The position numbers and the translations under genes were made by a program. Source: an uncultured bacterium (GTDB lineage: Bacteria; Patescibacteriota; Minisyncoccia; Phycocordibacterales; UBA9973). Taken from it: a stretch of DNA of 54,620 nucleotides. Within the stretch, counting starts at the first letter, position 1. Each line of letters opens with the position of its first letter. The DNA lies in NCBI GenBank assembly GCA_903869825.1, contig CAIQAL010000031.1, forward strand, positions 1 to 54,620, given 5' to 3'. The notes beneath the pieces are model-generated. The model saw only the letters and a program-made list of their open reading frames with translations, was not told the DNA's origin and did not search any database. Shown in pieces: positions 11,442 through 53,218 of the stretch.

Positions 11442-11930
11442 TTATATTTTATTAATTCTTCTAATGTGCCTTTCATCTTCGGAAAACTTCGTATTTAAGA
11501 AAAGTTCCACTGCAAACTTTGCTTCGTCTTCGCTCATAAAGCGTACTCCGAGTGATAAGATGTTCGCATTGTTGTGTTCCCGCGCGAGCTTAACTATTTC
11601 AAAAGTTTCGGCACTTTTCTTTCCACTTATATCAATCTCCGCTTGCGCTTCTTTTGGACCATAAAAAATAGCTGCTCGAATTCCTTTCGTTTTATTGGCG
11701 CAAATCGCTTCTCCTTGTCCAGAACCGCCTAAAATAATTCCTTTACTTCCAACATCATTTGCTACGGCTTCAGCTACTGGCCGAATAAAATCAGGATAAT
11801 CATCATCCTTGTCGTACTTTACATTTCCCTTATCTTCAACTTCATATCCCTCTTCGAGTTCTGTTATGTATGTTTTTAGTTTTTCCTTCAATCCGTATCC
11901 TACGTGGTCACTACCAATGTATATTTTCAT
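11442..11930 (-). CDS. rpiB: Ribose-5-phosphate isomerase B
   Basis: GSDHVG, DDYPD, GSGQGE, REHNNAN, RHIRRI. Confidence 0.93.
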   Translation of the reverse strand: MKIYIGSDHVGYGLKEKLKTYITELEEGYEVEDKGNVKYDKDDDYPDFIRPVAEAVANDVGSKGIILGGSGQGEAICANKTKGIRAAIFYGPKEAQAEIDISGKKSAETFEIVKLAREHNNANILSLGVRFMSEDEAKFAVELFLNTKFSEDERHIRRINKI

Positions 11931-13749: not shown

Positions 13750-16700
13750 ATGGAAAAAGAAACTGCCAAATTTGTCCACCTGCATACCCACTCGCATTAT
13801 TCCCTCTTGGATGGACTTTCTAAGGTTGAAGATTTGGTCTCTCTCGCTAAAAAATATAAGATGCCAGCTCTCGCTATCACTGACCACGGCAACATGTATG
13901 GCACAATTGAATTTTATAAACTAGCAAAAAAAGCCGGAATAAAACCAATCATCGGAGTAGAAGCCTACATCGCTGAACGTTCAAGACTCGACAAAGAGTC
14001 AGGGATTGATAATAAGCGTTATCATTTAACGTTGCTTGCAAAAAATAATGAAGGCTACAAAAATTTGATCAGACTTGTCACTTTGGCAAACCTGGAAGGC
14101 TACTATTACAAACCAAGGATGGACAAAGAAATCTTAAGAAAACATTCCGAAGGAATCATTTGCCTTTCAGGTTGTATGGGAGGCGAACTTTCCCAAGCAT
14201 TAACAAAAAATGACCCGAACAAAGCGGAAAAAATAATAAAAGAGTATCAGGAAATTTTCGGGAAAGAAAATTATTTTTTAGAAATAATGAACCATCACAC
14301 AGTCTCGAACGACAAAGTAGTAAGAGAAAATATTATCTCTCTTGGAAAGAAATTTAACATTCCGATTGTCGCAACTTTTGATTCCCACTATCCACACACC
14401 GAGGACGCAAAAGCACATGAAACATTGCTCGCAATTCAGACGAATACCGACGTAAATGACGAAAATAAATTTTCCTTCGGAGACGATGATTATTCATTTG
14501 TAAATCCGGGAAAGGCGTATGAAATGTTCGAAGACATTCCAGAAGCGGTAGAAAACACTGTAATGGTGGCCGACCTATGTAATGTGGAAATTGACCTAGG
14601 AAAATGGGTCTTTCCAAATTTCATCGTTTCCGATGGAAAGACCTACGATGAAAAATTACGTGAGCTTACATATTTAGGTATTAAAAAAAGAAAAATAGAA
14701 GAAACCCCCGAACTCCTTAAGCGAGTTGAATATGAGCTAGATATAATTATAAAAAAAGGATATTCGCCATACTTTTTAGTGGTGGGTGATCTCTTACACC
14801 ACGCTAAAGAAAACGGAATTTTAACTATGGTCCGAGGATCGGTGGCAGGATCAATGGTGAACTACCTTATTGGTATCACAAACGTGAATCCAATAGAATA
14901 CAAACTTCCATTCGAGCGATTTTTAAACCCGTTTCGGCCTTCCCCTCCCGATATCGACATGGATTACGCCGACAATCGCCGAGATGAAATGATTGAATAT
15001 GCCAAACAAAAATATGGTGAAGACAAAGTTGCCCAGATAGGAACTTTCGGAACAATGATGGCCCGAGGTGCTGTTCGAGATGTTGCACGAGCTCTTGCTT
15101 ATCCATATACCATTGGTGACCGCATTTCAAAAATGATTCCCATGGGTTCTCAAGGAATGCCAATGACTATTGATAACGCAATCAAGATGATACCGGAATT
15201 AAAAGAAGCTTACGAAAAAGAAATTGACACAAAAGAAATAATAAATTTGGCAAAAAAGTTGGAAGGTTGTGTCCGACATATCTCGGTTCATGCCGCCGGA
15301 GTAGTTATCTCTCCGAAACAAATTTATGAATATACTCCCACTCAGCTTGACCCAAAAGGCGGAAAAATAATTACTCAATACGATATGTACAGCATCGAAG
15401 AAGCCGGACTCCTAAAATTCGACTTTCTCGGAATTCGAAATTTATCAATTTTGTCAGACAGTATTAGTTTAGTTAAAAAATTCTACGATGTGACGGTGGA
15501 CCTTGATAATATTCCACTCGATGATAAGAAAACTTTTACTCTTCTCGCCAAAGGTCAAACGGAAGGGCTCTTTCAATTAAACGGCTCAGGAATGACACGA
15601 TATTTAAAAGAATTAAAACCAACTTCCATCCACGATATCAATGCGATGGTTGCTCTTTATCGTCCGGGCCCGATGGATTCGATTCCCGAATACATTAAGC
15701 GAAAACACAATCCTCAATATGTCACCTACTTAGACCCCAGAATGAAAAAATTCTTGGGTGAATCTTATGGGTTAATTGTTTACCAAGACGACCTTCTTTT
15801 CTGCGCCCTTGAAATGGCAGGCTACAACTGGGAAGAAGCGGACAAGTTCCGAAAAGCGGTCGGTAAAAAGATTCCAGCTGAAATGGCGGCTCAATATAAA
15901 AAATTTACCAAAGGAATAGTCGACAACGGACAGACGTCGGCATTTGCCGAAAAACTCTGGAAGCTTTTCGAACCTTTCCAGGCGTACGGATTTAACAAAG
16001 CGCACGCCGCCAGTTATGGCCGGGTTGCATATCAGACAGCTTATATGAAAGCGCATTACCCGGTAGAATATATGACCGCCATTTTGACTGCTGAGTCCGG
16101 CGACGTTGAAAAAATTTCAGAAATAATTACCGAATGTAAAAAAATGGATATCGCGGTTCTCCCCCCGAACATCAATGAAAGTTTCGGTGGGTTTACTTGT
16201 TTAGCGGAAGACCCGAATTCAAAAATAAGTGCCAAAAACAAAAGCGTCAAAATCCGTTTCGGACTTTATACCATAAAAAATCTGGGCACCGATATTTCTG
16301 ATGCTATTATTGCCGAAAAAAAGGAGAACGGAAAATATCAATCAATCACTGACTTCTTGGATCGAATCAAACATAAAAATTTGAATAAAAAATCGCTAGA
16401 GGCACTCATCAAATCAGGATCGATGGACGACTTGGGTGAACGTGGAATGTTACTTGCAAACTCAGAAGATATGCTTTCTTACAGCCGGGAGGCTGGAAAG
16501 CAAGACAAAAATCAAGTTTCTCTTTTTGGTGAAATGAAAGAAGCAAAACCCGAATTTAAAATGAACAATATCTCTTCTTCCACTCAAGGTGAAAAACTCC
16601 TTTGGGAAAAAGAATTGCTCGGACTTTATATTTCGGGACATCCTCTAGACCGGCTCAGAGATAAACTTGAAAAAAGAGACGTAAATATTAAAAAAATTAA

Positions 16701-36354: not shown

Positions 36355-36572
36355 TAAAGTGTCCGTAAGTAGTACACAATGCATGTATTTAAAATACCCA
36401 TCATCTTCCTTAAGAAGATGATGGGCAAGGGGGTGGTGGGGTCTGGGGAGGAGGGGGTAAAAAAGGTGGATATTTTTGTCATGGTAGAAAACTGCAAGAT
36501 CTCAAAAAACTCTCAACCAAAGCGAACCCAGGGGGAACCAAGGGGTACCCAAGGGTAATTTAAGGGTCAAAG

Positions 36573-36593
36573 TTACTGCACTGGGTGCAGTAA
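36573..36593. repeat. Palindrome TTACTGCAC-tgg-GTGCAGTAA (left DGR flank)
   Basis: Perfect 9-bp arms, 15 bp beyond the RT stop; second copy at 39307. Confidence 0.85.
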
Positions 36594-36608
36594 AAGTATT
36601 ATTTTAAA

Positions 36609-37598
36609 CTATATCTCAACTCCATTCTTGTTTTTAATATATTTCCTTAATTTGTAAGTATCTCCATGCCCAAGTAATCCCCGATATGAATTTACCGTTT
36701 CTGGCTTCGGATAACCCTTTAATTTCCTGATTATTTTTCTTTTGGTAGAAGTCCTGATTTGCCGATGATATGGAAAATGCACCCAACCCAAAAAATCTAC
36801 CCCTGAAGCATAGGTCTTGATATATACTTTGTTTTCGTGCAGTTTTAACTTCAGTTTTTCGTTTAAAAACTTTTCCATTTTAAGAAGCAGTTCTTCTAAG
36901 TAATTCTCGTTGTCAGATAAGATCGCAAAATCGTCAGCATAGCGAATGTAGTATTTCACTCTAAGTTCCTGTTTTACAAACATATCAAATTCATGCATAT
37001 AAATATTCACAAAAAGTTGTGATGTTAAATTGCCTAAAGGTAAACCCACTCCGATTTTTGTCGTATGAAAACTTGAGATTACTTGTTTAATCAACCAATG
37101 CATTTCTTCGTCTTCAATATGTCGCCTAAGAATTTTGTATAAAACATCATGGTCAATACTGGCAAAAAACTTTTTAATATCGCCCTTCAGCACGTAGCAG
37201 GTTCTGGTATTATTTTTGGATACTTTCCTGGCAAAATATTGAAATCTGTCCAATGCTCTATGCGTTCCTTTTTTCTTACGACAAGAATATGAATCGTAAA
37301 TAAAGCGTTGGTCGAAATATGGATATAATTCTTTGTAGATTAAATGGTGTAGAAGTCTGTCTCGAACTGTTGCTTTATGAATATTTCTTGGCTTCGGGTC
37401 AGAAACATTAAAAGCAGAATATTCTCCATGCTTGTACGTTCTTGTTTGTAGAAGATAATATAAATCATTTATGTTATCTCCGAGTTTTGCTTGAAAAATT
37501 ATCACGCCTTTCTTTTTTCGTTTGCCACGAAGAAAACGCTCCCAAGTCACAAGGAGATTTTCGATTGATATGATATTGTTGTATTTATGAATAAACAT
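36609..37598 (-). CDS. DGR reverse transcriptase (329 aa)
   Basis: KPRNIH, RDRLLH, DSYSCRKKKGTH, DIKKFFASIDH, GLPLGNLTSQ (DGR-type SQ), YIRYADDF, DFLG; start at MFIHKY. Confidence 0.96.
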   Translation of the reverse strand: MFIHKYNNIISIENLLVTWERFLRGKRKKKGVIIFQAKLGDNINDLYYLLQTRTYKHGEYSAFNVSDPKPRNIHKATVRDRLLHHLIYKELYPYFDQRFIYDSYSCRKKKGTHRALDRFQYFARKVSKNNTRTCYVLKGDIKKFFASIDHDVLYKILRRHIEDEEMHWLIKQVISSFHTTKIGVGLPLGNLTSQLFVNIYMHEFDMFVKQELRVKYYIRYADDFAILSDNENYLEELLLKMEKFLNEKLKLKLHENKVYIKTYASGVDFLGWVHFPYHRQIRTSTKRKIIRKLKGYPKPETVNSYRGLLGHGDTYKLRKYIKNKNGVEI

Positions 37599-37615
37599 AC
37601 TAAGACTATAAATTA

Positions 37616-37652
37616 CCCCCCCCCCCGCACAAGCACCGCTTGTGCTTGTGCG
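37616..37652 (+). promoter_or_regulatory. C11 tract plus 11-bp hairpin at the avd 5' end (candidate slippage/phase switch)
   Basis: C11 at 37616-37626, then cgcacaagcac-cgctt-gtgcttgtgcg. Confidence 0.55.
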
Positions 37653-37989
37653 TACCAAAGATTCGTATAAAGTTTGGCACACACATTTAGTTAACATCTC
37701 TAAGGTAAACAGGCACACAATTGGTGTAAAAATTGATGGTATCTTTCTATCTTTGCTTGAAACAATATTTAGAGCAACTTTCGCCAGTGATAAATTTGAA
37801 AAGTTGTCTCTTGTATCTCAAGCCATTGGTAAGGCTGACCTGTTAAAATTCTTTCTACAAATTGGCTGGGAACAGAAAATGCTTGACCACACTGTTTACG
37901 GAAATATTATTCTTCAACTAGACGAAGTTGGTCGAATGTTGGGCGGATGGAAAAAGAGTTTACAAGAAAAAACTCCCGCCAATAAATAG
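37642..37989 (+). CDS. avd: Avd-like accessory variability determinant (four-helix bundle); likely true start at ATG 37587 across the C-tract
   Basis: Ends EVGRMLGGWKK; RHTIGVKID, DLLKFFLQIGWE; lies between RT and TR. Confidence 0.88.
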   Translation: MLVRTKDSYKVWHTHLVNISKVNRHTIGVKIDGIFLSLLETIFRATFASDKFEKLSLVSQAIGKADLLKFFLQIGWEQKMLDHTVYGNIILQLDEVGRMLGGWKKSLQEKTPANK

Positions 37990-38005
37990 TAGGAGAAAAC
38001 GGTAT

Positions 38006-38129
38006 AAGTTGCAGAAGACGAGAATCACGTTGTTGTCATCCCAGTCATTCTCGAAGTAACCAAGATTGAACTTGAAGTTACCGTCCGAGTTGGCATTCAC
38101 GTTAGGCACCCTGTGGTTGCCGTCAGCGT
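38006..38129 (-). ncRNA. DGR template repeat (TR), 124 bp
   Basis: Ungapped match to 38494-38617 with 16 mismatches, all at minus-strand A; 10 AAY codons. Confidence 0.96.
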
Positions 38130-38395
38130 ACGCAAAGCAACGTACAACACACTTTCTTTCCCACTAAAATCAGCACCAGCCAATTTTTGTATTTTATTTT
38201 GAGTCTTAATAACTCACTAATGTATTGCACCGACTTATTTTGTTTTTTCATGAAAGGACGCACTCATTCACAAGACGTATCCAATGAACCCCTCGCGTTT
38301 CCTTTGACGAGAAATTGACTATGTGAAGTCGTAACCGCGCATCAATCTTTTTCCTTTTTTGATTATATCTTAAAAATTAAATTTTACATAAAAAA

Positions 38396-38421
38396 AGTGC
38401 CTTTACAAAAGTAAAGGCACT
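38396..38421 (-). terminator. Terminator of the DGR target gene
   Basis: agtgcctttac-aaaa-gtaaaggcact followed by a T-run on the minus strand. Confidence 0.75.
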
Positions 38422-38465
38422 AGAATCAAGGGTCTAAGGACCCAATGTTTTTAGAATCAAAGCGA

Positions 38466-39206
38466 CTAAGTGCTAGCCTGCTCGCTAGCAGGCAAGTCGC
38501 AGAAGACGAGAATCACGTAGAAGTCATCCCAGTCACCCTCGAAGTAACCAAGAACGAACCCGAAGCCACCGTCCGAGTAGGCATCCACGTAAGGCACCCT
38601 GTGGTAGCCGTCAGCGTCTTCCCAGAGAGCATCCTTTTCATCAAAAGAAATCGTCCATTTGCCCTTTAAGAGTTTTTCTTTTGCAACGTCGTAAACCAAC
38701 GTTACACCCTGCCCGCCTGCTAATATGCCATTGTACCTGCGCGAGATATTCATACAATCTTCGCTCGTTACTGTTTCGAGTATCGGAATCATTTTCACTC
38801 TGTAGGTTTTGCCGGGTTCCAGCTTTCGGGTTGCTTTTGAAAAATTCTTGCTATTGAGGTCATTGTTGTAGTAATACGTAGTCTTTTCCTTTTTTGCTTT
38901 TTGGGCAGAGGCGTCAATCTGCGTATCGTGGTTGTAGTCAGCAGGAACAGTTAAGTTAAATTCAACAGGAATACCGAAGCGTTTGTCAATGATTGCAAAC
39001 TTTTTGAGTAATGCGGTCATAAACGTTTTGATTTCGTCCTGAATTAAATTCCCTTTTTTGAAAATTTCCTGTGCTTCTTCCTTAGTAAAACCAAGGTTGA
39101 CGAGGTCACCGGAATTAAATGAATTAATTCCATCTTCAAGCAACCTCTTGATTGCCTTAAGCTGACCTTCGGTCATAGGATCTGATGTAATCTTTTCAGT
39201 TATCAT
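38466..39206 (-). CDS. DGR target protein (246 aa) with C-terminal variable region, probably CLec-like fold
   Basis: Contains the VR at its C-terminus (DADGYHRVPYVDAYSDGGFGFVLGYFEGDWDDFYVILVFCDL); no signal peptide or TM. Confidence 0.92.
   Translation of the reverse strand: MITEKITSDPMTEGQLKAIKRLLEDGINSFNSGDLVNLGFTKEEAQEIFKKGNLIQDEIKTFMTALLKKFAIIDKRFGIPVEFNLTVPADYNHDTQIDASAQKAKKEKTTYYYNNDLNSKNFSKATRKLEPGKTYRVKMIPILETVTSEDCMNISRRYNGILAGGQGVTLVYDVAKEKLLKGKWTISFDEKDALWEDADGYHRVPYVDAYSDGGFGFVLGYFEGDWDDFYVILVFCDLPASEQAST
38476..38493 (-). other. Hairpin/cruciform immediately 3' of the VR (target-recognition element)
   Basis: gcctgct-N4-agcaggc; absent after the TR. Confidence 0.7.
38494..38617 (-). 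repeat. DGR variable repeat (VR)
   Basis: Copy of the TR with A-to-N substitutions in 11 codons. Confidence 0.96.
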
Positions 39207-39255
39207 CGTTATAAAGTTTTCAAAGGGCTAAATCATTTGTTCATTAGCCAAATAC

Positions 39256-39284
39256 ATTATATCACATATCATATAAAAATGCAA
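39256..39284 (-). promoter_or_regulatory. Promoter of the DGR target gene
   Basis: TTGCAT-17-TATAAT with extended TG. Confidence 0.7.
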
Positions 39285-39306
39285 ATTTTTGTTAGGTACA
39301 TTCACT

Positions 39307-39327
39307 TTACTGCACCTGGTGCAGTAA
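39307..39327. repeat. Palindrome TTACTGCAC-ctg-GTGCAGTAA (right DGR flank)
   Basis: Same arms as the 36573 copy; just upstream of the target promoter. Confidence 0.85.
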
Positions 39328-39480
39328 ATAATCAAAAAGCATAAAACTTTCCCATGATATCCTTAAATTATAAGGACACAAAAGAGTTTTATGCCTAAAA
39401 TGAACATTTTAAAAATTTACTCCATGGGGTGGGGTAAACTTGTGCATTTTTTTATTTTTTACATGTGCAATAATAAATTT

Positions 39481-39804
39481 ATGACAAAGAAAAGAAAAAA
39501 GGAAATTGAACGAGCTTTGGCTCAGATTGATAGCAAAAGAAGACTGGGCATATTAGATGGACCCTTTATTCAAAAACAAGCTGAGAAAAAAGAAGGTGTT
39601 GCTTTTATAATTAAGGATGTTTACAACGGCGATCTGGAAATTAAAGAAAGTGCAAATGCTTGGTGGATGGAAGGAAGGAAGTTGGTAAAATCATTGAAAT
39701 TGTTTTTGAAAAAGCGTGGAAAGAAGAAATGGGTACTCAAAACAAGCAAGAGTCAGTCATCATCCAAAAGTCAAAGGAATTGCGAAATACCATTGATGAG
39801 CTGA
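39481..39804 (+). pseudogene. 5' fragment of an element gene apparently fused by deletion to the recombinase remnant
   Basis: MTKKRKKEIE...SANAWWME then a low-information tail overlapping the recombinase frame. Confidence 0.45.
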
Positions 39805-40208
39805 CTGTGGTGGCACGCAAAGCAAAGAACGATCAAGTGCGTGAAGTATATGAACTTCAAATTGAAGACGCTGTGCGAGAATTGAAAGAGTTGCGAGGTA
39901 AAACGTTAAACGAAATGGACCCGTCAGTTCCTTATCGAACCGCTCTTCGTAAATCGAAGGGATTCCTGAAAAGCCCTTATGCTGTTTGGAAAAAATTAGA
40001 AATCGAAGAACAACATAAGCTCTATTTTTTCGTATTTGACGAAAAATTAGCGTTTGATCCAAAAAATGGTTATCAAACCGCAGAAATACCAACGGCCATA
40101 AAGCTTTTTGAGGAATTTGTGGTTACAAACTCTCAGAGTGTGGACCCTACAGGACTCGAACCTGCCACCTCCTCATTGCAAATGAGGCGCTCTAGCCAGA
40201 TGAGCTAA
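39660..40208 (+). pseudogene. C-terminal fragment of a large serine recombinase reading into tRNA-Ala
   Basis: Coiled coil, PYRTAL..FLKSPYAVW, ends VDPTGLEPATSSLQMRRSSQMS (tRNA antisense); no catalytic domain. Confidence 0.7.
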
Positions 40209-40214
40209 GGGCCC
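40141..40214 (-). tRNA. tRNA-Ala(UGC)
   Basis: GGGCCCT/AGGGTCC acceptor with G3:U70, cctca-tt-TGC-aa-tgagg, GTTCGAG T-loop; CCA not encoded. Confidence 0.96.
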
Positions 40215-41376: not shown

Positions 41377-41451
41377 TCCGGGGTAGCTCAGCGGTAGAGC
41401 GGTCGCCTGTTAAGCGATTGGTCGTAGGTTCGATCCCTACCCCCGGAGCCA
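41377..41451 (+). tRNA. tRNA-Asn(GUU)
   Basis: TCCGGGG/CCCCGGA acceptor, gtcgc-ct-GTT-aa-gcgat, GGTTCGATCCC, encoded CCA. Confidence 0.96.
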
Positions 41452-42579
41452 GTTAGGTTGATTTGCAAATGTGAGTATATGATTATACGGAGAACGTATT
41501 GAAAACTCTAGCTTATTTTCATTTGCAACGCAGTTCTGAAGTAAGTAATTCAGGATTGCTCTTTTTTCAGGGACTTCAGAACTTTTGAATAATTCAAAAG
41601 CATTTTTTGCTAGATTTAACACAGTAGAAGCCGTAATATAATAGTTTTCATCTGCTCTAGTATGGTCCTCAATTTGGATGTTGATATCATACTGTTTTTC
41701 TTTCATCTCTTTCAACTTTTTATCATACTCATCCTTAGTAATACTCTGGTCAAGAAGTAGGTCAGTAAGACGGCTAAGTCTTACTTGAATAGTGTTGTAT
41801 TCTTGCTGTAAAGCCCTTATAGCTTCTTTGTGATATAAGTCCTTGCCCTCATTTGATTTTTTAAGTCCTTCAACTATTTCGTCTATCTTTGCTTGTGGTA
41901 TGCTCTCAAATGCCTCTAGGAGCTTGTATATGGGCTTTAAAAAGTCTTTTTCTGGTATGTATATCTTCTTATCACATAGGTCTTTTTTGGCATTTGTGCA
42001 ACTATAATAAATAAACTTTCCTTTGGCAGTTTCAGGACTCATAGCACAACCGCATTTTTTACATCGAACCAATCCTCTAAAAATATAAGGTTTTGAAGCG
42101 TATTGAAATGGTTTTTTGCCCCAGCCTTTTCTTATCTGTTGGCATTTTTCAAAAAGCTGTTTGCTTATTATTGGCTGATATTTGTGCGGATATGTTTTGC
42201 CTTTTGATAACATTTCTCCGTAATAGAATGGATTATTTAATATATGGCTAACCATACTTAAAGCCAACGGCTTACCGACATTACTATCTAATCCAGCTTT
42301 TGACATTTCGGTCCTTAGAGTTAGTGTTGAATAATTTCCAGTTGCATATAGCTCAAACATTTTTCTGATTAAGTGGGCAGTGTTTGAATCTAGGATTATA
42401 TCTTTGTTTCCTTTTATATCGCCAATATTTTTATAACCAATAGGAGCTTTACCAGTCCATTCGCCATTTCTTCGTTTTTGTTCAAACTTTCTTTTTACAT
42501 TATCGCTTAATTGAAGCACATAACTTCTTGCAAACATTACTGCCATATCCCAACGAAGAAGGTCTGCACTATTTGAATC
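41437..42579 (-). pseudogene. 5'-truncated large serine recombinase at tRNA-Asn
   Basis: LSDNVKR, APIGY, ILNNPFYYG, PIIS, Zn ribbon CKKCG..YYSC, coiled coil; frame closed by a stop just upstream of DSNSADLLRWD, so the catalytic domain is missing; stop codon lies inside the tRNA. Confidence 0.85.
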
Positions 42580-46539: not shown

Positions 46540-47799
46540 TTATTTTAGCATATTTTTTCGGCTTTTTGAACGATAGAATTTGATGGCGAAACGATGAGAT
46601 TCACTGTTGGCAAGTAGAATCTCCCTTTTGTACTGCCTGATTATTTTTTCCTCTCCAGTGATTGAACTTGCCTTATGTCGATCATCTTTAGTCACCGCTA
46701 CAACTGGAATTTTTAATTGATATTTGTTTAAAACCCTACTAGCCACATTTAATTGGGCCATACTACCATCCACCACCACGAGCGAAGGTAATCCCCATTC
46801 CAGGTGCCGAAATCTACGCGACATCACTTCTTCGAGCGCCCCCGTGTCGTTACTGCCACTTTGGGTTCTGATAATGAATTTCTTGTACTCTCTTTTCGCC
46901 ATTTCTCCGTCTTCAAGCACTGTCATCACTCCAACCATATTTTTGCCTGACATATGAGCTATATCATAAGCTTCTATTCGAATTAAGCCCCTTTTATTTT
47001 TTTGCTCCCGAGGGTTCCACCCCGTACTCGGGGAAGGGTGCAGATACGAAAAATTGGAAGAAGTGTAACTATTTTCATTTTTTATTAAAGCAATATCGTT
47101 AATATGTTCCAAGGCAAAAATTTTGTTTTTTATTTCGTGCGCTTTTTCAAATTCCTTTTTTTTTGCACATACCATCATCTCTTTTTTAAAGTTTTGAATT
47201 ATCTTTTTCTTTTTGCCTTGAAAAAATAATTTTAAATTTCTGATATTTTCTTTATACTCCAAAATCCCATCCGGGGTTAACCCAAGTTGGTGATAAAAGG
47301 TAATATTATTTTTCTTTGAAGACTGCGCATCAATATAAGGAAAAATACGTCGAATTATTTTCATCGCTTCTTTTAGCTGTCCCCCGTTTGTATAAGGACC
47401 GTAATTTGCTTGAAAATTTTCTTTTTTTAAATTCCTACCACGAACAATCATTATTTTAGGAATCTTATCTTTTGTAATGCAAACGTAATTCCAAGACTTA
47501 TCGTCTTTCTCTCGTACATTGTATTTCGGTAGATGTTTTTTTATCAGCTCTGCTTCAAGGATAAGTGCTTCCAAAACACTGTCCGTTTCTTGCCAGTCTA
47601 CCTTGTCTGCTTGGACGACCATATCCAAAATCATCGGCCCCCGAGTAACGATCAAATCTTTACTGAAGTAACTCCGAGTCCTGTCGCGCAAGGAAGTGGC
47701 TTTCCCAATGTAAAGAATAGTTTTCCCTTTTTTGAAGAAATACACTCCAGGCTTATCAGCCAACTTAAATTTTTTCAAGTCATATACTTGCATAACCAC
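46540..47799 (-). CDS. uvrC: Excinuclease ABC subunit C (compact, no C-terminal HhH)
   Basis: GIY-YIG (PGVY..YIGKA), UVR-like segment, RNase H-like EAYDIAH, VDG. Confidence 0.9.
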   Translation of the reverse strand: MVMQVYDLKKFKLADKPGVYFFKKGKTILYIGKATSLRDRTRSYFSKDLIVTRGPMILDMVVQADKVDWQETDSVLEALILEAELIKKHLPKYNVREKDDKSWNYVCITKDKIPKIMIVRGRNLKKENFQANYGPYTNGGQLKEAMKIIRRIFPYIDAQSSKKNNITFYHQLGLTPDGILEYKENIRNLKLFFQGKKKKIIQNFKKEMMVCAKKKEFEKAHEIKNKIFALEHINDIALIKNENSYTSSNFSYLHPSPSTGWNPREQKNKRGLIRIEAYDIAHMSGKNMVGVMTVLEDGEMAKREYKKFIIRTQSGSNDTGALEEVMSRRFRHLEWGLPSLVVVDGSMAQLNVASRVLNKYQLKIPVVAVTKDDRHKASSITGEEKIIRQYKREILLANSESHRFAIKFYRSKSRKNMLK

Positions 47800-47808
47800 A
47801 TTATAACT

Positions 47809-50403
47809 CTATTTACGTAGTTCTTTTTTTAAGTATTTTCCAGTATAACTTTTCGGATTATTTGCTACTTCTTCCGGAGTACCTTTTGCCACCAAACGCC
47901 CTCCGCTTTCTCCTCCTTCAGGCCCGATATCAATAATGTAATCAGAATTTTTTATGATATCCATATTGTGCTCAATCAAAACGACAGTATTTCCTTTGTC
48001 TACTAATTTATTCAAAACCTCCAAAAGTTTTGCTACATCATCATAATGCAGTCCAACTGTCGGTTCGTCGAGTAAATAAATAGTCTTTTCCAAATGAGGG
48101 CGGTAAAGTTCTGAAGAAATTTTTACTCGCTGGGCTTCTCCACCCGAAAGCGTCGTGGCAGATTGTCCAAGTTTGATATACCCCAAACCAACATCCATCA
48201 AAGTTCGGAGTCGGTCGTAAACTTCCGGAATATCTTCAAAGAATTTGATTGCTTCTTCCACCGTCATCTGGAGAACTTCAAAAACGTTCTTCTTTTTGTA
48301 TTTGATCGTCAAGGTTTCTTTATCAAATCTTTTTCCATTACAAACATCACAGGTAACATACACGGTAGGTAAAAAATGCATTTCAACCGCTATTTCCCCA
48401 TGGCCTTCACATGCTTCGCAGCGTCCACCTTTCACGTTAAAAGAAAAACGATTTGCTTTCCAACCTCGCAGTTTCGCTTCACTTGATGCAGCAAATAATT
48501 CCCGAATATGAGTAAACGAACCGGTGTAAGTAGCAATGTTTGAGCGAGGAGTGCGACCAATCGGAGATTGGTCAATCAAAATCGCCCGTGATAAATATTC
48601 TGTCCCAGTGAATGAGGCACAATTATAAATCTTGGCCGTTCGATATTTCCGGTCATAACGTCCTTGCAAATTTTTATACAAAATCTCATACATGAGAGAC
48701 GACTTTCCACTTCCAGACACTCCGGTAATGGTCACCATTTTACCAAGTGGAATTTCAACATCCATATTCTTTATATTAAAAACTTTCCCTCCGATAATTT
48801 TCAGTGCCCCTTTATTTTTATCCCGTCGATTATCGGGTACAGGAATTTTTGCTTCCCCTCGAAGATACGCCAAGGTGCGAGATTTGGAAGGATTCGTTTT
48901 GGCTGAAATCAAGTCATCCAAATAACCTGAAACAACTACTTCTCCGCCGTGAATCCCTGCTTTTGGACCAATGTCCACAATGTAATCCGAAGCAAAAATC
49001 GTGTCTTCGTCGTGTTCGACCACTAAAATAGTATTTCCTAAATCACGAAGATTGTGCAATGTTTTGATAAGTCGTTCATTATCCCGCTGGTGGAGCCCAA
49101 TTGTAGGCTCATCAAGCACATAAAGCGCCCCAACAAGCCTGGAACCCAATTGGCTGGCCAAACGGATACGTTGAGCTTCTCCACCCGAAAGAGTGCTCGC
49201 CTTTCGATCGAGCGAAAGATAATTGAGCCCAACATTTAACAAAAATTGAATCCGGGCCTCGATTTCTTTTATTACTACTTTTGAAATTTCTTTTTCCTGC
49301 TCCGTTAGTTTAAGTTCGATAAAAAAGTCTGCAACTTTTTCAATTGAAAGCCCGGTAATATTTACAATATTTATTTTGTCGCCCAAAAAAACATTTAAGG
49401 CTTCGGGTCGCAAGCGTGCACCGTGACAAACTTCACAAGTTTCATCTCCAAAAAAATCTTTCAGCCCAAGACCATTACAAGCAGGACAGGCACCGTATGG
49501 AGAATTAAAAGAAAAAAGTCTCGGCTCAATTTCCGGGAATGAAAAACCGTCGTTCGGGCAAGAAAATTTTGTCGACATTAAAAATTCTTCCTTCTCATTG
49601 AAGGATACTGTCACAAGTCCATCAGACTCGGCAATGGCAAGCTCTACTGCTTCGGAAAGTCGCATTCGGGCATCGTCTAAACTATCCTTGAATTCATGCA
49701 TTGAAAATGTATCGACTAGTAGATCAATATTGTGCTTTTTATTTTTAGAAAGCTCAATTCGGTCGCGTAAATTTTTCATTTCTCCATCCAGCCTTATTTT
49801 TTGAAAACCTTTATTGAGTGAATCATAAAGCAATTGATAGTATTCCCCTTTTCTGCCTCGGACCATCGGCGAAAAAATAGTCACCGGAGTTTCGTCAAAT
49901 TCGATTCCTAAAACTTTTCTTTTTCCTTTTGCTGAACCCTTGAGTGAAAAATGATCATTTATCTTATCAAAAATAAAATTCAAGATTTGTTCGTTGGAAA
50001 GTTTTTTTATTTCATCACCACACACCGGACAATGAGGTCGGCCGATACGGGCATAGAGCACCCGCAAGTAATCGTATATTTCAGTGATAGTCGCCACAGT
50101 CGAGCGAGGATTATTTGAACGAGATTTTTGGTCAATCGAAATCGCGGGAGAAAGTCCGGTGATTTCATCCACATCGGGCTTAGCCATTTGATTTAAAAAT
50201 TGACGAGCATAAGCGGACAAGCTTTCCACGTAACGCCTCTGACCCTCGGCAAAGATTGTATCAAAAGCAAGGGACGATTTCCCGGACCCTGATACTCCTG
50301 AAATTACCACCATTTTATTGCGAGGCATTTCCACATTGATATTCTTTAAGTTGTGGGTTCGGGCTCCTTTTACTATTAATTTGTCTACGTTTTTCTCTTT
50401 CAT
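47809..50403 (-). CDS. uvrA: Excinuclease ABC subunit A
   Basis: GARTHNLKN, two [17 protein letters not shown] twice, Zn fingers. Confidence 0.97.
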
Positions 50404-50511
50404 CCTTATATTACATATTACAACGAAATTTGCACCCCACTTCCTTATAGGGGGTGTAGCTCAATATTCAACTAACTATAGTATAGCACAAAAATCTTAA
50501 TTTGACAAAAA

Positions 50512-52605
50512 CTATTTATTTTCTCTTTCTGTTTTTTCTTTTAAGACGATAATTTCATCTCGTAGGATAGCGGCAGTTTCAAAATCAAGTTCTTTCACCG
50601 CACGAGACATTTCTTTTTCTTTCATTTTGATTATTTTTTCGTAAATCAGGTCATTCCATTCTTGGTCGGAAAGTTTACTTTTTGTCTTGCCATACTTTTT
50701 TTCTCTCGACATTGTCTTTCTAAAAAGTTCCACGTCGAGCCCAATCTCTGCCCGGACAGTTTTTTCATGCTTGTCTTCCAATTCTTCCGTGATGTCTTTT
50801 ATTTTTTTGATAATCGTTTTCGGAGTAATCCTATTCTTTTTATTGTAAGCCATCTGTATGGCACGGCGACGGTTAGTTTCGCTTATGGCATATTCCATTG
50901 AGCCGGTCATGTGGTCGGCATACAAAATAACTTTTCCCTCCACGTTTCGGGCCGCTCGCCCAATAGTCTGGACCAAAGAAGTATTACTACGCAAAAATCC
51001 TTCCTTGTCGGCATCTAGAATTCCAATCAAAGCAACTTCCGGCAAGTCTAATCCTTCTCTGAGTAAATTTACTCCCACTAAAATATCAATCTCCCCTTTT
51101 CGGAGTTGAGTCAAAATTTGAATTCTTTCAATTGTTTTTACTTCACTGTGCAAATATTCCGCTTTGATTCCTTTATCTTTCAAATACACCGATAAATCTT
51201 CTGCCATTCTTTTGGTTAGAGTAGTGGTCAACACCCGAAAACCTTTTTTAATTGTTCGTTCTGCTTCGGCTATAAAATCCTGAACTTGGCCAGGATAAGG
51301 ATTCCCGCTGTTCACTTCAGCGCTTACCGGCCGCACAATTACCTCCGGATCAATCAAACCAGTAGGTCGAATTATCTGCTCTACGATTCGACCGCTTTCT
51401 TTTCTTTCTTCATCGGCCGGAGTGGCCGAGGTATAAATTACTTGCCCAATTCGTTCTTCAAACTCAGGGTATTTTAGAGGTCGATTGTCTTTCGCGCTTG
51501 GTAATCTAAAACCAAACTCCACCAAAGTTTTCTTTCGAGAGGCATCACCCGCATACATTCCACGAAGTTGAGGCAGGGTCACATGCGATTCATCAATAAT
51601 AGTTAGAAAATCTTTTTTAAAATAGGACAATAATGTTTCAGGTGGTTCACCTTCCGCTTTCCCGGATAAATGTCTCGAGTAGTTTTCAATACCACTACAA
51701 TAACCCACTTCTCGAATCATCGCCAAATCATAATTTGTTCTTCTTTTAATTCTCTCTGCTTCTAATAATTTTCCTTCTTTCTCAAACTTTTTCAATTGTT
51801 GATTCAGTTCGGCCCGAATTAATTTTAACGCACGATTCTTTTGACCCTCTTCGGTGATGAAATGTTTTGCCGGGAAAAGATAAATATTTTCCTCTTCTTT
51901 TAGTACCAGTGAAGAAACCGGATCTACTTTCGCAATTCTTGAAACCTTATTCCCAAGAAATTCTATTTGGTATACAAATGTTTCGGAAATAGGCATCACC
52001 TCAATCTTTTGTCCAATTGAACGAAAAGTACCCGGATTAATATCAGCATTGGTTCTTTCAAAATGAATTTCAATTAATTTTTTCATCAAAGGAACTCGAC
52101 CTATCTCCATTCCAATCGCCATTTTCAAATTTACTTTTTCGTATTCTTCCGGAGACCCGAGCCCATATATACAAGAAACTGAAGCAACAATAATCACATC
52201 TCGCCTCATAAGTAAGGCTTGAGTTGAGGCATGGCGTAAGCGGTCTATTTCTTTATTAATTTGAGAATCTTTTTCAATATAAGTGTCGGTTATTGGTAAA
52301 TATGCCTCTGGCTGATAATAATCATAATAGGAAACAAAGTAATGCACAGCTGCATCAGGAAAAAATTCCCGAAACTCTTGAGCCAATTGCGCTGCCAGAG
52401 TTTTATTGTGGGCAATGACTAGGGTTGGCTTGTTATATGAGGCAATTACATTTGCCATGGTAAAAGTCTTCCCAGTTCCGGTAGCTCCAAGTAGAGTTTG
52501 TTTCCTTATCCCTTTTTCTAGACCTTGAAGGAGCTCCGAAATAGCCTTCGGCTGGTCTCCTTCCGGTTTAAAGTCACTTTTAATTTTGAAAATTTTTCTA
52601 TCCAT
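50512..52605 (-). CDS. uvrB: Excinuclease ABC subunit B
   Basis: GDQPKAI, GATGTGKT, YYDYYQPEAY, DESH, GRAARN, UVR domain. Confidence 0.97.
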   Translation of the reverse strand: MDRKIFKIKSDFKPEGDQPKAISELLQGLEKGIRKQTLLGATGTGKTFTMANVIASYNKPTLVIAHNKTLAAQLAQEFREFFPDAAVHYFVSYYDYYQPEAYLPITDTYIEKDSQINKEIDRLRHASTQALLMRRDVIIVASVSCIYGLGSPEEYEKVNLKMAIGMEIGRVPLMKKLIEIHFERTNADINPGTFRSIGQKIEVMPISETFVYQIEFLGNKVSRIAKVDPVSSLVLKEEENIYLFPAKHFITEEGQKNRALKLIRAELNQQLKKFEKEGKLLEAERIKRRTNYDLAMIREVGYCSGIENYSRHLSGKAEGEPPETLLSYFKKDFLTIIDESHVTLPQLRGMYAGDASRKKTLVEFGFRLPSAKDNRPLKYPEFEERIGQVIYTSATPADEERKESGRIVEQIIRPTGLIDPEVIVRPVSAEVNSGNPYPGQVQDFIAEAERTIKKGFRVLTTTLTKRMAEDLSVYLKDKGIKAEYLHSEVKTIERIQILTQLRKGEIDILVGVNLLREGLDLPEVALIGILDADKEGFLRSNTSLVQTIGRAARNVEGKVILYADHMTGSMEYAISETNRRRAIQMAYNKKNRITPKTIIKKIKDITEELEDKHEKTVRAEIGLDVELFRKTMSREKKYGKTKSKLSDQEWNDLIYEKIIKMKEKEMSRAVKELDFETAAILRDEIIVLKEKTERENK

Positions 52606-52852: not shown

Positions 52853-52858
52853 CATTTT

Positions 52859-53218
52859 TTATCTTGTGTCTATAAGCCGAATTCTGTTTCTCACAAAGTG
52901 AGAGATAACCATTTATCTAGGCCCTCAATTACTTGTGGGCTCAAGCGATTCTTCCCTCGATTGCTCTTGGGACACGATCTTGCACAGAGGTAAGGATTTA
53001 GCCGTTTCATATCCTATATTACTATAAGACTCACTCAAAGATTTCTCTTTGAGTGGCCTAAACTTTTCAATTTAAGCCGTCTCTGTTCGCACCTCAAGGA
53101 TTGCTCCCGACGGGCGTTACCCGCTACCATTCCCATCCCGATATAAATCAGGACTCGCTGTGTTCGGACTTTCCTCCCCATAACGAAAATTATAGGGTAG
53201 TTACCCAACACAAGACAA
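52859..53218 (-). ncRNA. rnpB: RNase P RNA
   Basis: Minus strand has GAGGAAAGTCCGAAC and ACAGAATTCGGCTTATA; P1 pairing ttgtcttgtgtt / gacacaagataa. Confidence 0.93.

Follow-up and report, generated by a model that had tools for sequence, protein, structure and literature searches.

Two copies of a 21-bp palindrome frame a complete DGR within the window (the whole stretch of 54,620 nucleotides that was analysed), and we judge it highly probable – at roughly 85% – that this palindrome is a boundary site of a cargo slot in the host element and not a part of the DGR. The host is a member of a family of small integrative, phage-satellite-like elements of Patescibacteria, and in the window it carries one cargo unit, the DGR, in the order pal2, 21 bp, promoter, target gene with its variable repeat (VR), template repeat (TR), avd, reverse transcriptase (RT), 15 bp and pal1.

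The distal copy, pal1 (TTACTGCAC-TGG-GTGCAGTAA; 36573..36593), and the backbone-proximal copy, pal2 (TTACTGCAC-CTG-GTGCAGTAA; 39307..39327), which lies where the DGR target gene and the remnant of the backbone gene palX diverge, have identical arms and differ only in the 3-bp spacer, as an earlier sequence-only reading of this DNA had described; neither is assigned a strand. That reading placed pal1 15 bp past the RT stop and pal2 about 22 bp upstream of the -35 box of the target gene: the first distance is exact, the minus-strand RT frame ending at 36609, and the second measures 21 bp. Pal2 has one extra complementary pair per side (T/A), and the hairpin predicted for the palindrome has 9–10 pairs on either strand (-11.1 to -12.1 kcal/mol). 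At up to two mismatches pal1 and pal2 are the sole copies in the window, again as previously noted, and in the whole 774,086-base, 38-contig genome (G000); none of 100 dinucleotide-preserving shuffles of the window contained any match. To these we add a degenerate third copy (TTACTCCATGGGGTGGGGTAA; 39417..39437, no strand), mismatched at 4 of 18 arm positions, which sits close to the palX promoter, 110 bp to the right of pal2 and 46 bp upstream of the ATG at 39484.

The DGR between the palindromes is real and complete, and it appears to be active. Its RT gene (36609..37601, minus strand; RVT_1, PF00078, E 2.9e-26), whose ATG at 37601-37599 was taken from the sequence, lies beside the TR (38006..38129, minus strand), while the VR (38494..38617, minus strand) forms the 3′ end of the target gene (38466..39206, minus strand), which encodes 246 aa without a Pfam match. 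TR and VR are an adenine-only pair: all 16 mismatches fall at TR adenines, and a population variant, on a contig of run X3, shows 15 further VR differences, every one of them at a TR adenine. The bAvd accessory gene (37642..37989, plus strand; PF22296, 43.6 bits against a cut-off of 40) is opposite in strand to RT, TR and target, an arrangement identical in all related DGRs examined. A sigma-70-like promoter serves the target gene (39256..39285, minus strand; TTTGCA at 39285-39280, an 18-nt spacer and a TG-extended TATAAT ending at 39256), and this region is conserved upstream of the targets of the related DGRs G215 and G208. On the far side of pal1 stands a terminator-like hairpin (36395..36427, minus strand; 15 pairs, then TTTTAAAT), with a counterpart at equal distance from the palindrome in the sister element G638. 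The intervening spacer of about 145 nt (36428..36572, no strand), G-rich on the plus strand, has blocks GGGGTCTGGGG and GGGTAATTT in common with the region left of the distal palindrome of G638; it is a candidate for the left end of the element, or for a small transcript.

In its RT, bAvd, adenine-specific TR/VR differences and C-terminal VR this DGR resembles those of CPR bacteria, in which DGRs are very common. It differs in the palindromes, which lie outside the DGR unit, are not the known VR-adjacent hairpin and are missing from most homologous DGRs. The sequence-only reading had proposed that they might be recombination or transposition ends, making the DGR a mobile cassette nested in a host element, or else paired operators of a dimeric regulator. 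The nesting stands – the DGR does sit within a larger integrated element – but the palindrome is tied to that element and not to the DGR: the suggested comparison of related DGRs for the same flanks is negative for five of the six homologous DGRs examined, whose flanks lack the palindrome even at four mismatches, two of them with RT identities of 86–87%. The palindrome does bound two further DGRs in related Patescibacteria elements. In G127/G639, from another genus, it brackets a homologous DGR (RT 60% identical) at the same two positions.

Homology at the nucleotide level with G215 and G208, the closest DGRs, stops 15–50 bp inside both palindromes, so that the unit from promoter to RT stop behaves as a transplantable cassette. 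In G215 the cassette lies at the 3′ end of murB between the copies of another direct repeat, 28 nt long and unique, and this indicates that DGR cassettes move as units in this genus. Neither an empty site, a circular junction, a pal1-pal2 joint nor an excision junction was seen in contigs at a read depth of 2–5.

The site is rare and restricted to the Patescibacteria phylum. Of 200 other genomes in the family two have true sites, of 400 in the phylum sample none, and the sole one-mismatch match in these samples (G061) falls within a 630-aa ORF. Among 596 Gb of genomes there are 16 exact stretches: nine carry a Patescibacteria label, one is in an unlabelled MAG of about 0.6 Mb, and four of the remaining six lie within long ORFs. 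The search of genomes and MAGs that the sequence-only reading had suggested shows the motif to be specific, with two copies here and one to three at a single locus in nine other genomes, and a dispersed repeat of the REP/MITE kind is rejected.

What the site-bearing loci have in common is the backbone of the element: a large serine recombinase (LSR), a RepO/DnaD-like replication initiator (matches to phrog_9773, E 1e-24 to 9e-27) and the LOOT small RNA (RF03000, above gathering score in six elements), to which many members add PalX, as we name a rare terminase-small-subunit-like HTH protein. Across 11 locus sets the LSR is near the site in seven and PalX in five. The 3′ end of the LSR gene overlaps the 3′ end of a convergent RNA gene, which may be tmRNA, tRNA-Lys, tRNA-Ser or tRNA-Ala. 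In the window it is tRNA-Ala (40140..40214, minus strand) that forms the right border of the element, its 3′ end overlapped by a C-terminal LSR remnant (39657..40178, plus strand; 32% identity to residues 368-540 of the G638 LSR, E 5e-30) from which the catalytic N-terminus is absent; homology to relatives begins exactly at 40139-40140. The PalX remnant (39442..39687, plus strand) has 82 alignable N-terminal residues, 38% identical to the G637 protein, and its HTH part is missing. The backbone in the window is decayed, most of it having been lost through deletion.

Sister elements have what characterises a phage satellite – an integrase at a tRNA or tmRNA gene, a replication initiator and a TerS-like gene – where the window has only remnants. 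The family is like phage satellites and PICI-like islands in its small size, site of integration, integrase, replication initiator, TerS-like gene and variable defence cargo; it is unlike them in using an LSR as integrase, in its Patescibacteria host and in the LOOT RNA, and no helper phage or capsid-remodelling genes are known for it. For its palindromic slot borders the searches found no described counterpart.

PalX has an HTH core and matches phrog_4102, a terminase small subunit (E 9e-11); in the phage database its one relative, a hypothetical protein, is encoded close to the end of a Streptococcus satellite phage. It lies 43–320 bp from a palindrome in the four elements where the two adjoin (the window, G637, G638 and G639), and in G634 it is on another contig. 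Four of five further palindrome-bearing genomes (G631, G632, G633 and G635) yielded no PalX at E up to 0.01, G636 has an unrelated 215-aa gene in its place, and the palindrome is present at none of 12 loci with more distant PalX homologues. The terminase match, the satellite relative, the proximity of gene and site and the satellite-like backbone would all suit a packaging (pac-like) site recognised by the TerS-like PalX of a satellite-type element. We nonetheless hold this to be very improbable: a pac site is not expected at the far side of the cargo or between cargo units, several site-bearing elements lack PalX, no large terminase, capsid gene or helper is known, and a fold search of PalX found no significant terminase match (best E 0.95).

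In sister elements the palindrome delimits other cargo. In G638 the order is palindrome, 81 bp, genes for an AAA ATPase and an S8 subtilase, 3 bp, palindrome and palX; in G636 an HNH gene with genes for 327 and 80 aa stands between two palindromes, one with a single mismatch. G639 carries palX, a palindrome, an Eco57I-like gene with a HATPase and a 448-aa gene, a palindrome with one mismatch, a DGR and a third palindrome. A KAP NTPase gene is followed by palindrome and palX in G637 and preceded by a palindrome in G634; a palindrome precedes genes for an S24/LexA-like repressor and a SAVED-HNH protein in G633, and in L066 it lies 4 bp beyond an RT gene and a 145-aa ORF. The number of sites is one more than the number of cargo units, three for two in G639 and two for one in the window, G638 and G636. 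Cargo orientation relative to palX varies: the Eco57I-like gene of G639 runs opposite to that of G637, and the end that faces the backbone is the 5′ end of the DGR in the window and the 3′ end of the AAA ATPase and S8 genes in G638.

Stop codons precede many of the sites by 0–26 bp (those of RT, S8, KAP, the 448-aa gene and the 145-aa ORF), with the next promoter a short way downstream of the site. This position, together with the predicted hairpin and the appearance of pal1, on the plus strand, in a loose terminator scan, invites a reading at the level of RNA, in which the palindrome would be a bidirectional terminator or insulator isolating cargo transcription units, in the manner of phage-moron terminators. 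Such a role seems very improbable. Most copies lack a U-tract, their stem ending in TAA, and pal2 was not listed by the scan; separate canonical terminators stand nearby (38396-38421 and 36395-36427); and it is the sequence itself that is invariant, with no covariation and with a pair lost in both one-mismatch variants. An intrinsic terminator is a GC-rich stem with a U-tract behind it, conserved in structure and not in sequence; the missing U-tracts and this invariance make a plain terminator unlikely.

All 18 arm positions are conserved across sites, whereas the 3-bp spacer is free. Among five secondary sites, which were not chosen for exactness, three are exact, two have one mismatch and none has two; both variants break pairing with no compensatory change. 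Spacers vary even within one element (TGG and CTG in the window, CTG and TAG in G638, ACG, ACG and ATA in G639). Across site-bearing elements PalX proteins are only 23–39% identical and LSRs 21–32%. The site lies 20–28 bp upstream of the -35 box of a cargo promoter in the window, G633 and G639, and in G638b, in G639 at 14096 and in G635 it adjoins or partly covers the -35 region belonging to other -10-like boxes, although promoter calls are weak evidence in DNA this AT-rich: the scan listed 10 promoter-like sites where 10.3 are expected.

Conserved arms, a free spacer and proximity to promoters make recognition by a dimeric DNA-binding protein likely. We take (t)TTACTGCAC-N3-GTGCAGTAA(a) to be a probable 21-bp protein-recognition site that marks the edges of the cargo slot, and tentatively propose, at somewhat less than even odds, that it acts as an operator or insulator. 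A sequence-specific HTH protein would bind each site in duplex form as a dimer, and in elements that have PalX this protein is the best candidate; once occupied, the site, beside the promoters at the slot edge, would control or shield together the self-promoted cargo units and the first transcription unit of the backbone. The 9-bp arms, odd centre and nearby promoters fit an HTH dimer, and near-invariance of the sites while PalX and LSR diverge resembles recognition by a protein. A parallel is the lambda-type OL/OR arrangement, in which operator pairs flank the immunity or cargo region of temperate phages: there too, short dyad sites with an odd centre lie at divergent promoters a few kb apart and enclose genes, defence cargo included, that are expressed from the integrated element. 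Here, however, there is one perfect site per border in place of triplets of variable sites, sites recur between cargo units, and most elements have no repressor gene between the sites.

Several observations sit poorly with an operator. PalX is missing from several site-bearing genomes, its distant homologues have no site at any of their 12 loci, and in the window both sites are perfect beside a PalX without its HTH. Operators are usually less strictly conserved than these sites, in which 18 of 18 arm positions are kept; the palindromy that extends beyond the site by 10 bp in L051 and by 4 bp in G638b is not predicted by duplex binding; and an operator alone leaves unexplained both the n+1 sites for n units and cargo that lies either way round.

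Of known operators the LexA (SOS) box deserves mention, since with it the DGR would be inducible by DNA damage. In its dyad form the site is similar to the LexA box of E. coli, CTGT-N8-ACAG (PMC8565304), and in G633 it lies 59 bp upstream of the only strong S24/LexA-like gene of that genome. We give this possibility almost no weight. Another dyad, GTGAACGAGCGTTCAC, is found between the -35- and -10-like boxes of the host lexA operons of G000 and G639; in G637 and G638, which do have the palindrome, no LexA exceeds the Pfam cut-off (the LexA box is contradicted for all four); and the site occurs one to three times per genome, never at repair genes.

A strong rival, rated a little below the operator, is an integron-like cassette recombination site. 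Each cargo unit would be a mobile cassette carrying one palindrome, giving n+1 sites for n cassettes, and a recombinase acting on the symmetric site, perhaps as a folded single strand, would insert, excise or invert cassettes at the backbone-proximal site. Every border of a cargo unit has its site (two for a single unit, three for the two of G639), cargo is found in both orientations and is as diverse as is typical of defence islands, the window DGR loses homology to G215 and G208 just inside the palindromes, and the repeat-framed G215 unit shows that DGR cassettes move in this genus. With its conserved stem and free loop the palindrome is similar to folded attC-type sites, and the long extra palindromy of L051 and G638b suggests hairpin-related events. 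Set against this, ORF clustering of the 11 locus sets revealed no dedicated recombinase: the LSR is the sole shared one, and it sits at the tRNA end and is 21–32% identical between elements with different tRNA targets. Cassettes bring their own promoters, five of six other related DGRs lack the site, and the data, which are thin, show no empty site, no circle junction and no joint of pal1 with pal2. The 9-3-9, odd-centred geometry fits neither serine nor tyrosine recombinase core sites, and the differing spacers within the window, G638 and G639 argue against exchange that depends on spacer homology. The att sites of serine recombinases are hybrid and imperfect, lie at both element ends and surround a 2-bp crossover; we reject this identity for perfect odd-centred palindromes at cargo borders inside the element, away from the LSR/tRNA junction.

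A close analogy is with integrons, in which unrelated adaptive or defence genes are likewise separated by a recurring palindrome beside a fixed platform, with one site per cassette border in the array, n+1 sites for n cassettes, and a conserved stem with a variable centre. The differences are substantial. No IntI-type tyrosine recombinase was found near the sites by ORF clustering of the 11 locus sets or by Pfam searches of neighbours; every copy has 9-bp arms and a 3-nt centre without bulges, where attC forms an imperfect R/L-box hairpin, and the symmetric 21 bp have neither extrahelical bases nor R and L boxes; and the cassettes are self-promoted and lie in either orientation. It is conceivable, though less likely than not, that these LOOT-RNA/LSR satellite-type elements of Patescibacteria constitute an undescribed integron-like platform, whose perfectly symmetric 21-bp site would let self-promoted cassettes, among them defence systems, restriction enzymes and whole DGRs, be captured, inverted and exchanged at one fixed slot; were this so, the entire DGR would here be a mobile gene cassette.

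Whichever role the slot-boundary site has, a complete and apparently active DGR is carried as cargo by a satellite-like integrative element, and in sister elements, which come from several classes of CPR bacteria, defence cargo of very different kinds is bordered by this 21-bp site. The DGRs most closely related to this one are found in other surroundings; one of them, at murB, has a 28-nt repeat of its own as its frame. Taken together, these results allow a direct test of whether DGRs and defence genes move as cassettes among CPR bacteria. The orphan LOOT RNA motif can now be assigned to a defined mobile element, and as a candidate binding pair we name a rare HTH protein and a short DNA site. 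If the palindrome is a recombination site, cassettes would be captured here by a new system; as an operator, it would define how a new family of mobile elements in CPR bacteria is controlled.

The pairing of palindromes around the DGR that the sequence-only reading had noticed is confirmed: two copies of a 21-bp palindrome, TTACTGCAC-N3-GTGCAGTAA, lie at 36573-36593 (pal1, spacer TGG) and 39307-39327 (pal2, spacer CTG). At up to two mismatches they are the sole matches in the window, where none of 100 shuffles gave a match, and the only two copies in the whole of genome G000 (774,086 bases in 38 contigs, completeness rating 98.7%), of which the window is contig C31. Because the RT reading frame, on the minus strand, ends at 36609, pal1 lies 15 bp past the RT stop; and since the -35 box of the target gene occupies 39285-39280 (TTTGCA, with an 18-nt spacer and a TG-extended TATAAT in the best promoter-like site), pal2 lies 21 bp upstream of that box. 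A degenerate third copy, with mismatches at 4 of its 18 arm positions, is found at 39417-39437.

The DGR itself is ordinary for its phylum. All of its parts are on the minus strand, avd excepted: the target gene (39206-38466), with VR inside it (38494-38617), a terminator-like hairpin (38421-38396), TR (38006-38129) and RT (37601-36609), while bAvd occupies 37642-37989 on the plus strand. Throughout this DGR clade (the window and loci L039-L043 and L017) the avd gene, placed between TR and RT, invariably runs counter to both of them and to the target. The 16 differences between TR and VR all fall at TR adenines. A contig from X3 – one public lake-water sequencing run – matches the window in its flanks and differs at 15 VR positions, 15/15 at TR adenines, which indicates that the DGR has diversified within the sampled population: it is, or recently was, active there.

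A dispersed repeat was ruled out by searching the genome and its relatives: the site is present twice in G000 and is rare elsewhere, occurring in 3 of the 200 other family genomes and in one of the 400 from the phylum sample, with one match (genome G061; one mismatch, inside a 630-aa ORF) common to both samples. In each genome that bears the site its copies are confined to one locus. Species-representative genomes totalling 596 Gb, scanned for exact matches, returned 16 stretches, nine of which are labelled as Patescibacteria lineages (two Nomurabacteria, on one contig, two Kaiserbacteria, two Saccharibacteria, one Paceibacterota and two Patescibacteria group) and one of which is an unlabelled MAG of ~0.6 Mb. 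The remaining six are from unrelated organisms; four of these lie inside ORFs of at least 271 aa and behave as chance matches would. Metagenome and viral contigs supplied 27 further stretches, 17 inside ORFs of at least 100 aa and 10 not.

A central issue is whether the palindromes belong to the DGR or to its surroundings. The sequence-only reading had proposed that they might be the ends of a mobile DGR cassette nested in a host element, or else paired operators, and had suggested testing related DGRs for the same flanks. One such DGR exists, in a genome from a different genus of the window's family (labelled both G127 and G639; its contig bears the title Candidatus Nomurabacteria): a palindrome with one mismatch at 11491 is followed, after 86 bp, by the target and TR, then by avd on the other strand, by an RT sharing 60.6% identity with that of the window over 317 aa, and by a palindrome at 14096 into which the RT ORF extends. 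On the short metagenome contig L066 an RT (50% identity over 92 aa) is followed by a 145-aa ORF and, 4 bp after its stop, by the palindrome. The expectation failed for five DGRs from the window's own genus: the flanks of those in G215, G208, G210, G226 and G121, whose RTs are respectively 86.9%, 85.6%, 62.2%, 60.4% and 59.2% identical to that of the window, have no copy at up to four mismatches, apart from a single four-mismatch match in G208 which, judged by eye, falls in the start region of a neighboring gene. These five rule out the palindrome as an obligatory part of the DGR. Nucleotide homology between the window and G215/G208 extends from 36643-36647 to 38648-38649 and again from 39181 to 39268-39284 (target start and promoter), and thus stops 15-50 bp inside both palindromes. 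The conserved cassette is the unit from promoter to RT stop, and the palindromes belong to its surroundings. The notion of a nested cassette was right in outline; its error was to assign to the DGR a palindrome that is a feature of the host element.

Among the five palindrome-free DGRs, flank repeats were detected around that of G215 only: none was found at G210 or G226, and the single 11-mer shared between the DGR flanks in each of G208 and G121 was taken as chance. The G215 DGR, the closest relative of the window's (locus L041, contig C9; RT 87% identical; two target genes), has murB on one side and an FKBP isomerase gene on the other. Its two ends are marked by a 28-nt direct repeat (L041 4959-4986 and 8468-8495; 27/28 identical; unique in G215) that encodes the last 8 codons and stop of both murB and RT. 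This arrangement looks like an insertion into the 3′ end of murB with duplication.

The nature of the surroundings came from comparing the ORFs of 20-kb regions that contain the site, taken from ten genomes and the window, together with family searches. Judged by their gene content, the palindrome neighborhoods show a single kind of element. Its backbone comprises PalX (a rare terminase-small-subunit-like HTH protein), LOOT RNA (RF03000), a RepO-like initiator and a large serine recombinase (LSR). With PalX pointing right, a terminator-like hairpin is followed by ~130-150 nt that are rich in G in both the window and genome G638, a palindrome, and at least one cargo unit, every unit having a palindrome at its border; next come PalX and, on the opposite strand, a small zinc-ribbon or other gene; then LOOT RNA, a 245-328-aa gene, a RepO/DnaD-like initiator (phrog_9773) and the LSR. 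An unrelated 215-aa gene takes the place of PalX in G636 and at locus L048. The 3′ end of the LSR gene overlaps that of a convergent tmRNA in G638, tRNA-Lys in G636 and tRNA-Ser in G631. No two of the elements compared have the same cargo: an AAA ATPase and S8 subtilase (G638); HNH and two unknown genes (G636); an Eco57I-like enzyme, HATPase protein and 448-aa gene, then the DGR (G639); an Eco57I-like enzyme and KAP NTPase (G637); a KAP NTPase (G634); an ABC/SMC-like ATPase (G635); an S24 repressor and SAVED-HNH (G633); and an APH-like kinase (G631). The flanks of the KAP cassettes of G634 and G637 are unalignable, and a 12/18 look-alike site in G637 is within coding sequence.

LOOT RNA scores 48.9-79 bits (gathering score 46.4) in G636, G637, G638, G639 and loci L048 and L051. 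This orphan motif lies between PalX (or its substitute) and the replication and recombinase genes in all six elements (L105 13853-13975; L107 13687-13811; L108 2361-2484; L106 11417-11532; L048 4926-5043; L051 7664-7781), and in L051 it begins 76 bp from the palindrome. A role as guide for the site was rejected, the longest common words being 5-mers, in two of the six LOOT copies. In the G637 element a group I intron (RF00028, 62.6 bits; L106 15289-15576) closely follows the LSR gene at its 3′ end, where ARAGORN detected no tRNA; the intron occupies the place of the tRNA or tmRNA in other elements.

The element in the window is a wreck. Rightwards from pal2, PalX can be recognized only in its first 82 residues (39442-39687), the HTH part being gone, and this remnant runs directly into the last ~173 residues of an LSR (39657-40178; 32% identity to residues 368-540 of the G638 LSR, E 5e-30), which overlaps tRNA-Ala at 40140-40214. 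No LOOT RNA is present in this element. A single deletion from mid-PalX to mid-LSR would explain these remnants. To the left of pal1, a 15-pair hairpin (36395-36427) and the G-rich stretch are matched in G638 by features equally far from its distal palindrome, the word GGGGTCTGGGG among them. The G-rich region has no Rfam match, and a three-way alignment yields short common blocks only. No convincing match to a displaced 3′ end of tRNA-Ala or of the G638 tmRNA was found at the left border (best local scores 14-18).

Further right, a second LSR gene (41377-42546; 369 aa) converges on and overlaps tRNA-Asn; Recombinase and zinc-ribbon domains were found in it, and no catalytic domain. Genome G147 has a 96% identical copy of this tRNA-Asn and the first 370 bp. 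The stretch with the tRNA-Ala and tRNA-Asn LSRs is a hotspot for tRNA-targeting serine-recombinase elements; G000 contains at least six more LSR-like loci (contigs C13, C14, C18 twice, C22, C27 and C38). The part of the window with uvrA, uvrB and uvrC-like genes (46540-52605) and a bacterial RNase P class A RNA (52857-53216, minus strand) is ordinary chromosome.

Direct signs of mobility, for which the sequence-only reading had suggested looking at empty sites and junction reads, did not appear. The relatives G226, G147, G121 and G151 provided no empty site because synteny left of tRNA-Ala is lost in all four, their homology to the window starting at the tRNA-Ala 3′ end. Four lake-water runs from one study, examined as contigs at a depth of ~2-5, contained no joint between pal1 and pal2, the region around pal1 (36488-36634) being without coverage; three contigs span the pal2 junction as assembled in the window. 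An apparent 528-bp skip in X3 (38057-38586) was rejected as an excision: it is a cross-alignment of TR and VR with 40 other letters between. At a loose end in X3 (39380), a variant contig (7 differences in 224 nt) agrees with the PalX remnant to the right of ~39393 and, leftwards, continues for at least 255 nt unlike the window; hence a related strain may have a neighbor other than pal2 and the DGR to the left of its PalX remnant.

The palindrome keeps a regular position. It precedes the first start codon of each cargo unit by 35-100 bp, and in the cases with a good visible promoter (the window, G633, and the 11491 site of G639, where TTGACA is matched 6/6) it ends 20-28 bp before the -35. At the other end of the unit a palindrome follows the last stop by 0-102 bp, and the copy nearest the backbone is 43-320 bp before PalX. 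Site number equals units plus one in 4/4 elements seen whole, and the cargo may point either way with respect to PalX. Of five secondary sites, outside the selection made by the exact search, three are exact copies and two have one mismatch, and backbone proteins are merely 21-39% identical despite near-invariant palindrome arms. The three central bases vary freely and compensatory changes are lacking, both single mismatches breaking a pair. The hairpin is predicted to be stable (-11 to -12 kcal/mol). Conserved arms, a free center and the lack of compensation favor a site recognized by a protein dimer over a simple RNA hairpin. At L051 7847-7887 a further 10 pairs, all perfectly complementary, lengthen the palindrome on either side (AAGGCAAAAG / CTTTTGCCTT), far more than chance would give, and the proximal copy in G638 has 4 extra pairs. 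Function as a canonical terminator is improbable: the U-tract is missing from most copies, and other terminators are close by.

Our leading interpretation, to which we give roughly two chances in five, is that the palindrome is an operator or insulator for an HTH dimer encoded by the element. PalX would be the natural candidate for its binder: the structure model (mean pLDDT 63) has an HTH core, the terminase-small-subunit-like profile matches at E 9e-11, and the gene adjoins a site in four elements. A fold search gave no PDB match at E <= 0.001, its weak rows being HTH regulators and, at rank 42, one small terminase. The protein is very rare (5 of 5.8 billion proteins match at E <= 0.001; even distant relatives are in only 11 of 400 phylum genomes), and its absence from several site-bearing elements, together with its breakage in the window, counts against an operator. 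Recombination between cassettes at the palindrome would explain the n+1 rule, the two cargo orientations, the diversity of cargo and the long extra palindromy at two sites; we consider it a strong rival, somewhat less likely than the operator, though it comes with no recombinase and must tolerate unlike spacers within one element. Core sites of serine and tyrosine recombinases have even spacers, of 2 or 6-8 bp, and by such spacer rules the palindrome is unlike one; nor does it lie at the LSR/tRNA junction.

The dyad form, and the S24/LexA-like gene beside the site in G633, also prompted consideration of a LexA box. This was ruled out in G000 and G639, where the host lexA carries another dyad, and in G637 and G638, which have no LexA above the Pfam cut-off. 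The host lexA (G000 contig C16, ~70976-71300, minus strand; locus L112, contig C38 of G639) is preceded by a conserved small ORF of ~65 aa, and the dyad found with this pair, GTGAACGAGCGTTCAC, lies between -35- and -10-like boxes; it resembles a LexA box of the Gram-positive type, here in a family of Patescibacteria.

Literature listings showed nothing relevant on LexA in Patescibacteria, and no paper was found that joins DGRs, Patescibacteria and a serine recombinase. The half-site sequences matched nothing relevant in print, their matches being primers or unrelated by title. In the main texts searched we found no link between LOOT RNA and such elements; that of PMC5737381 names LOOT solely in a reference, its description presumably being in supplements. 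The same literature offered no counterpart to a perfect palindrome recurring at the borders of cargo slots. The element that carries it joins the broad class of tRNA-integrating islands and satellites.
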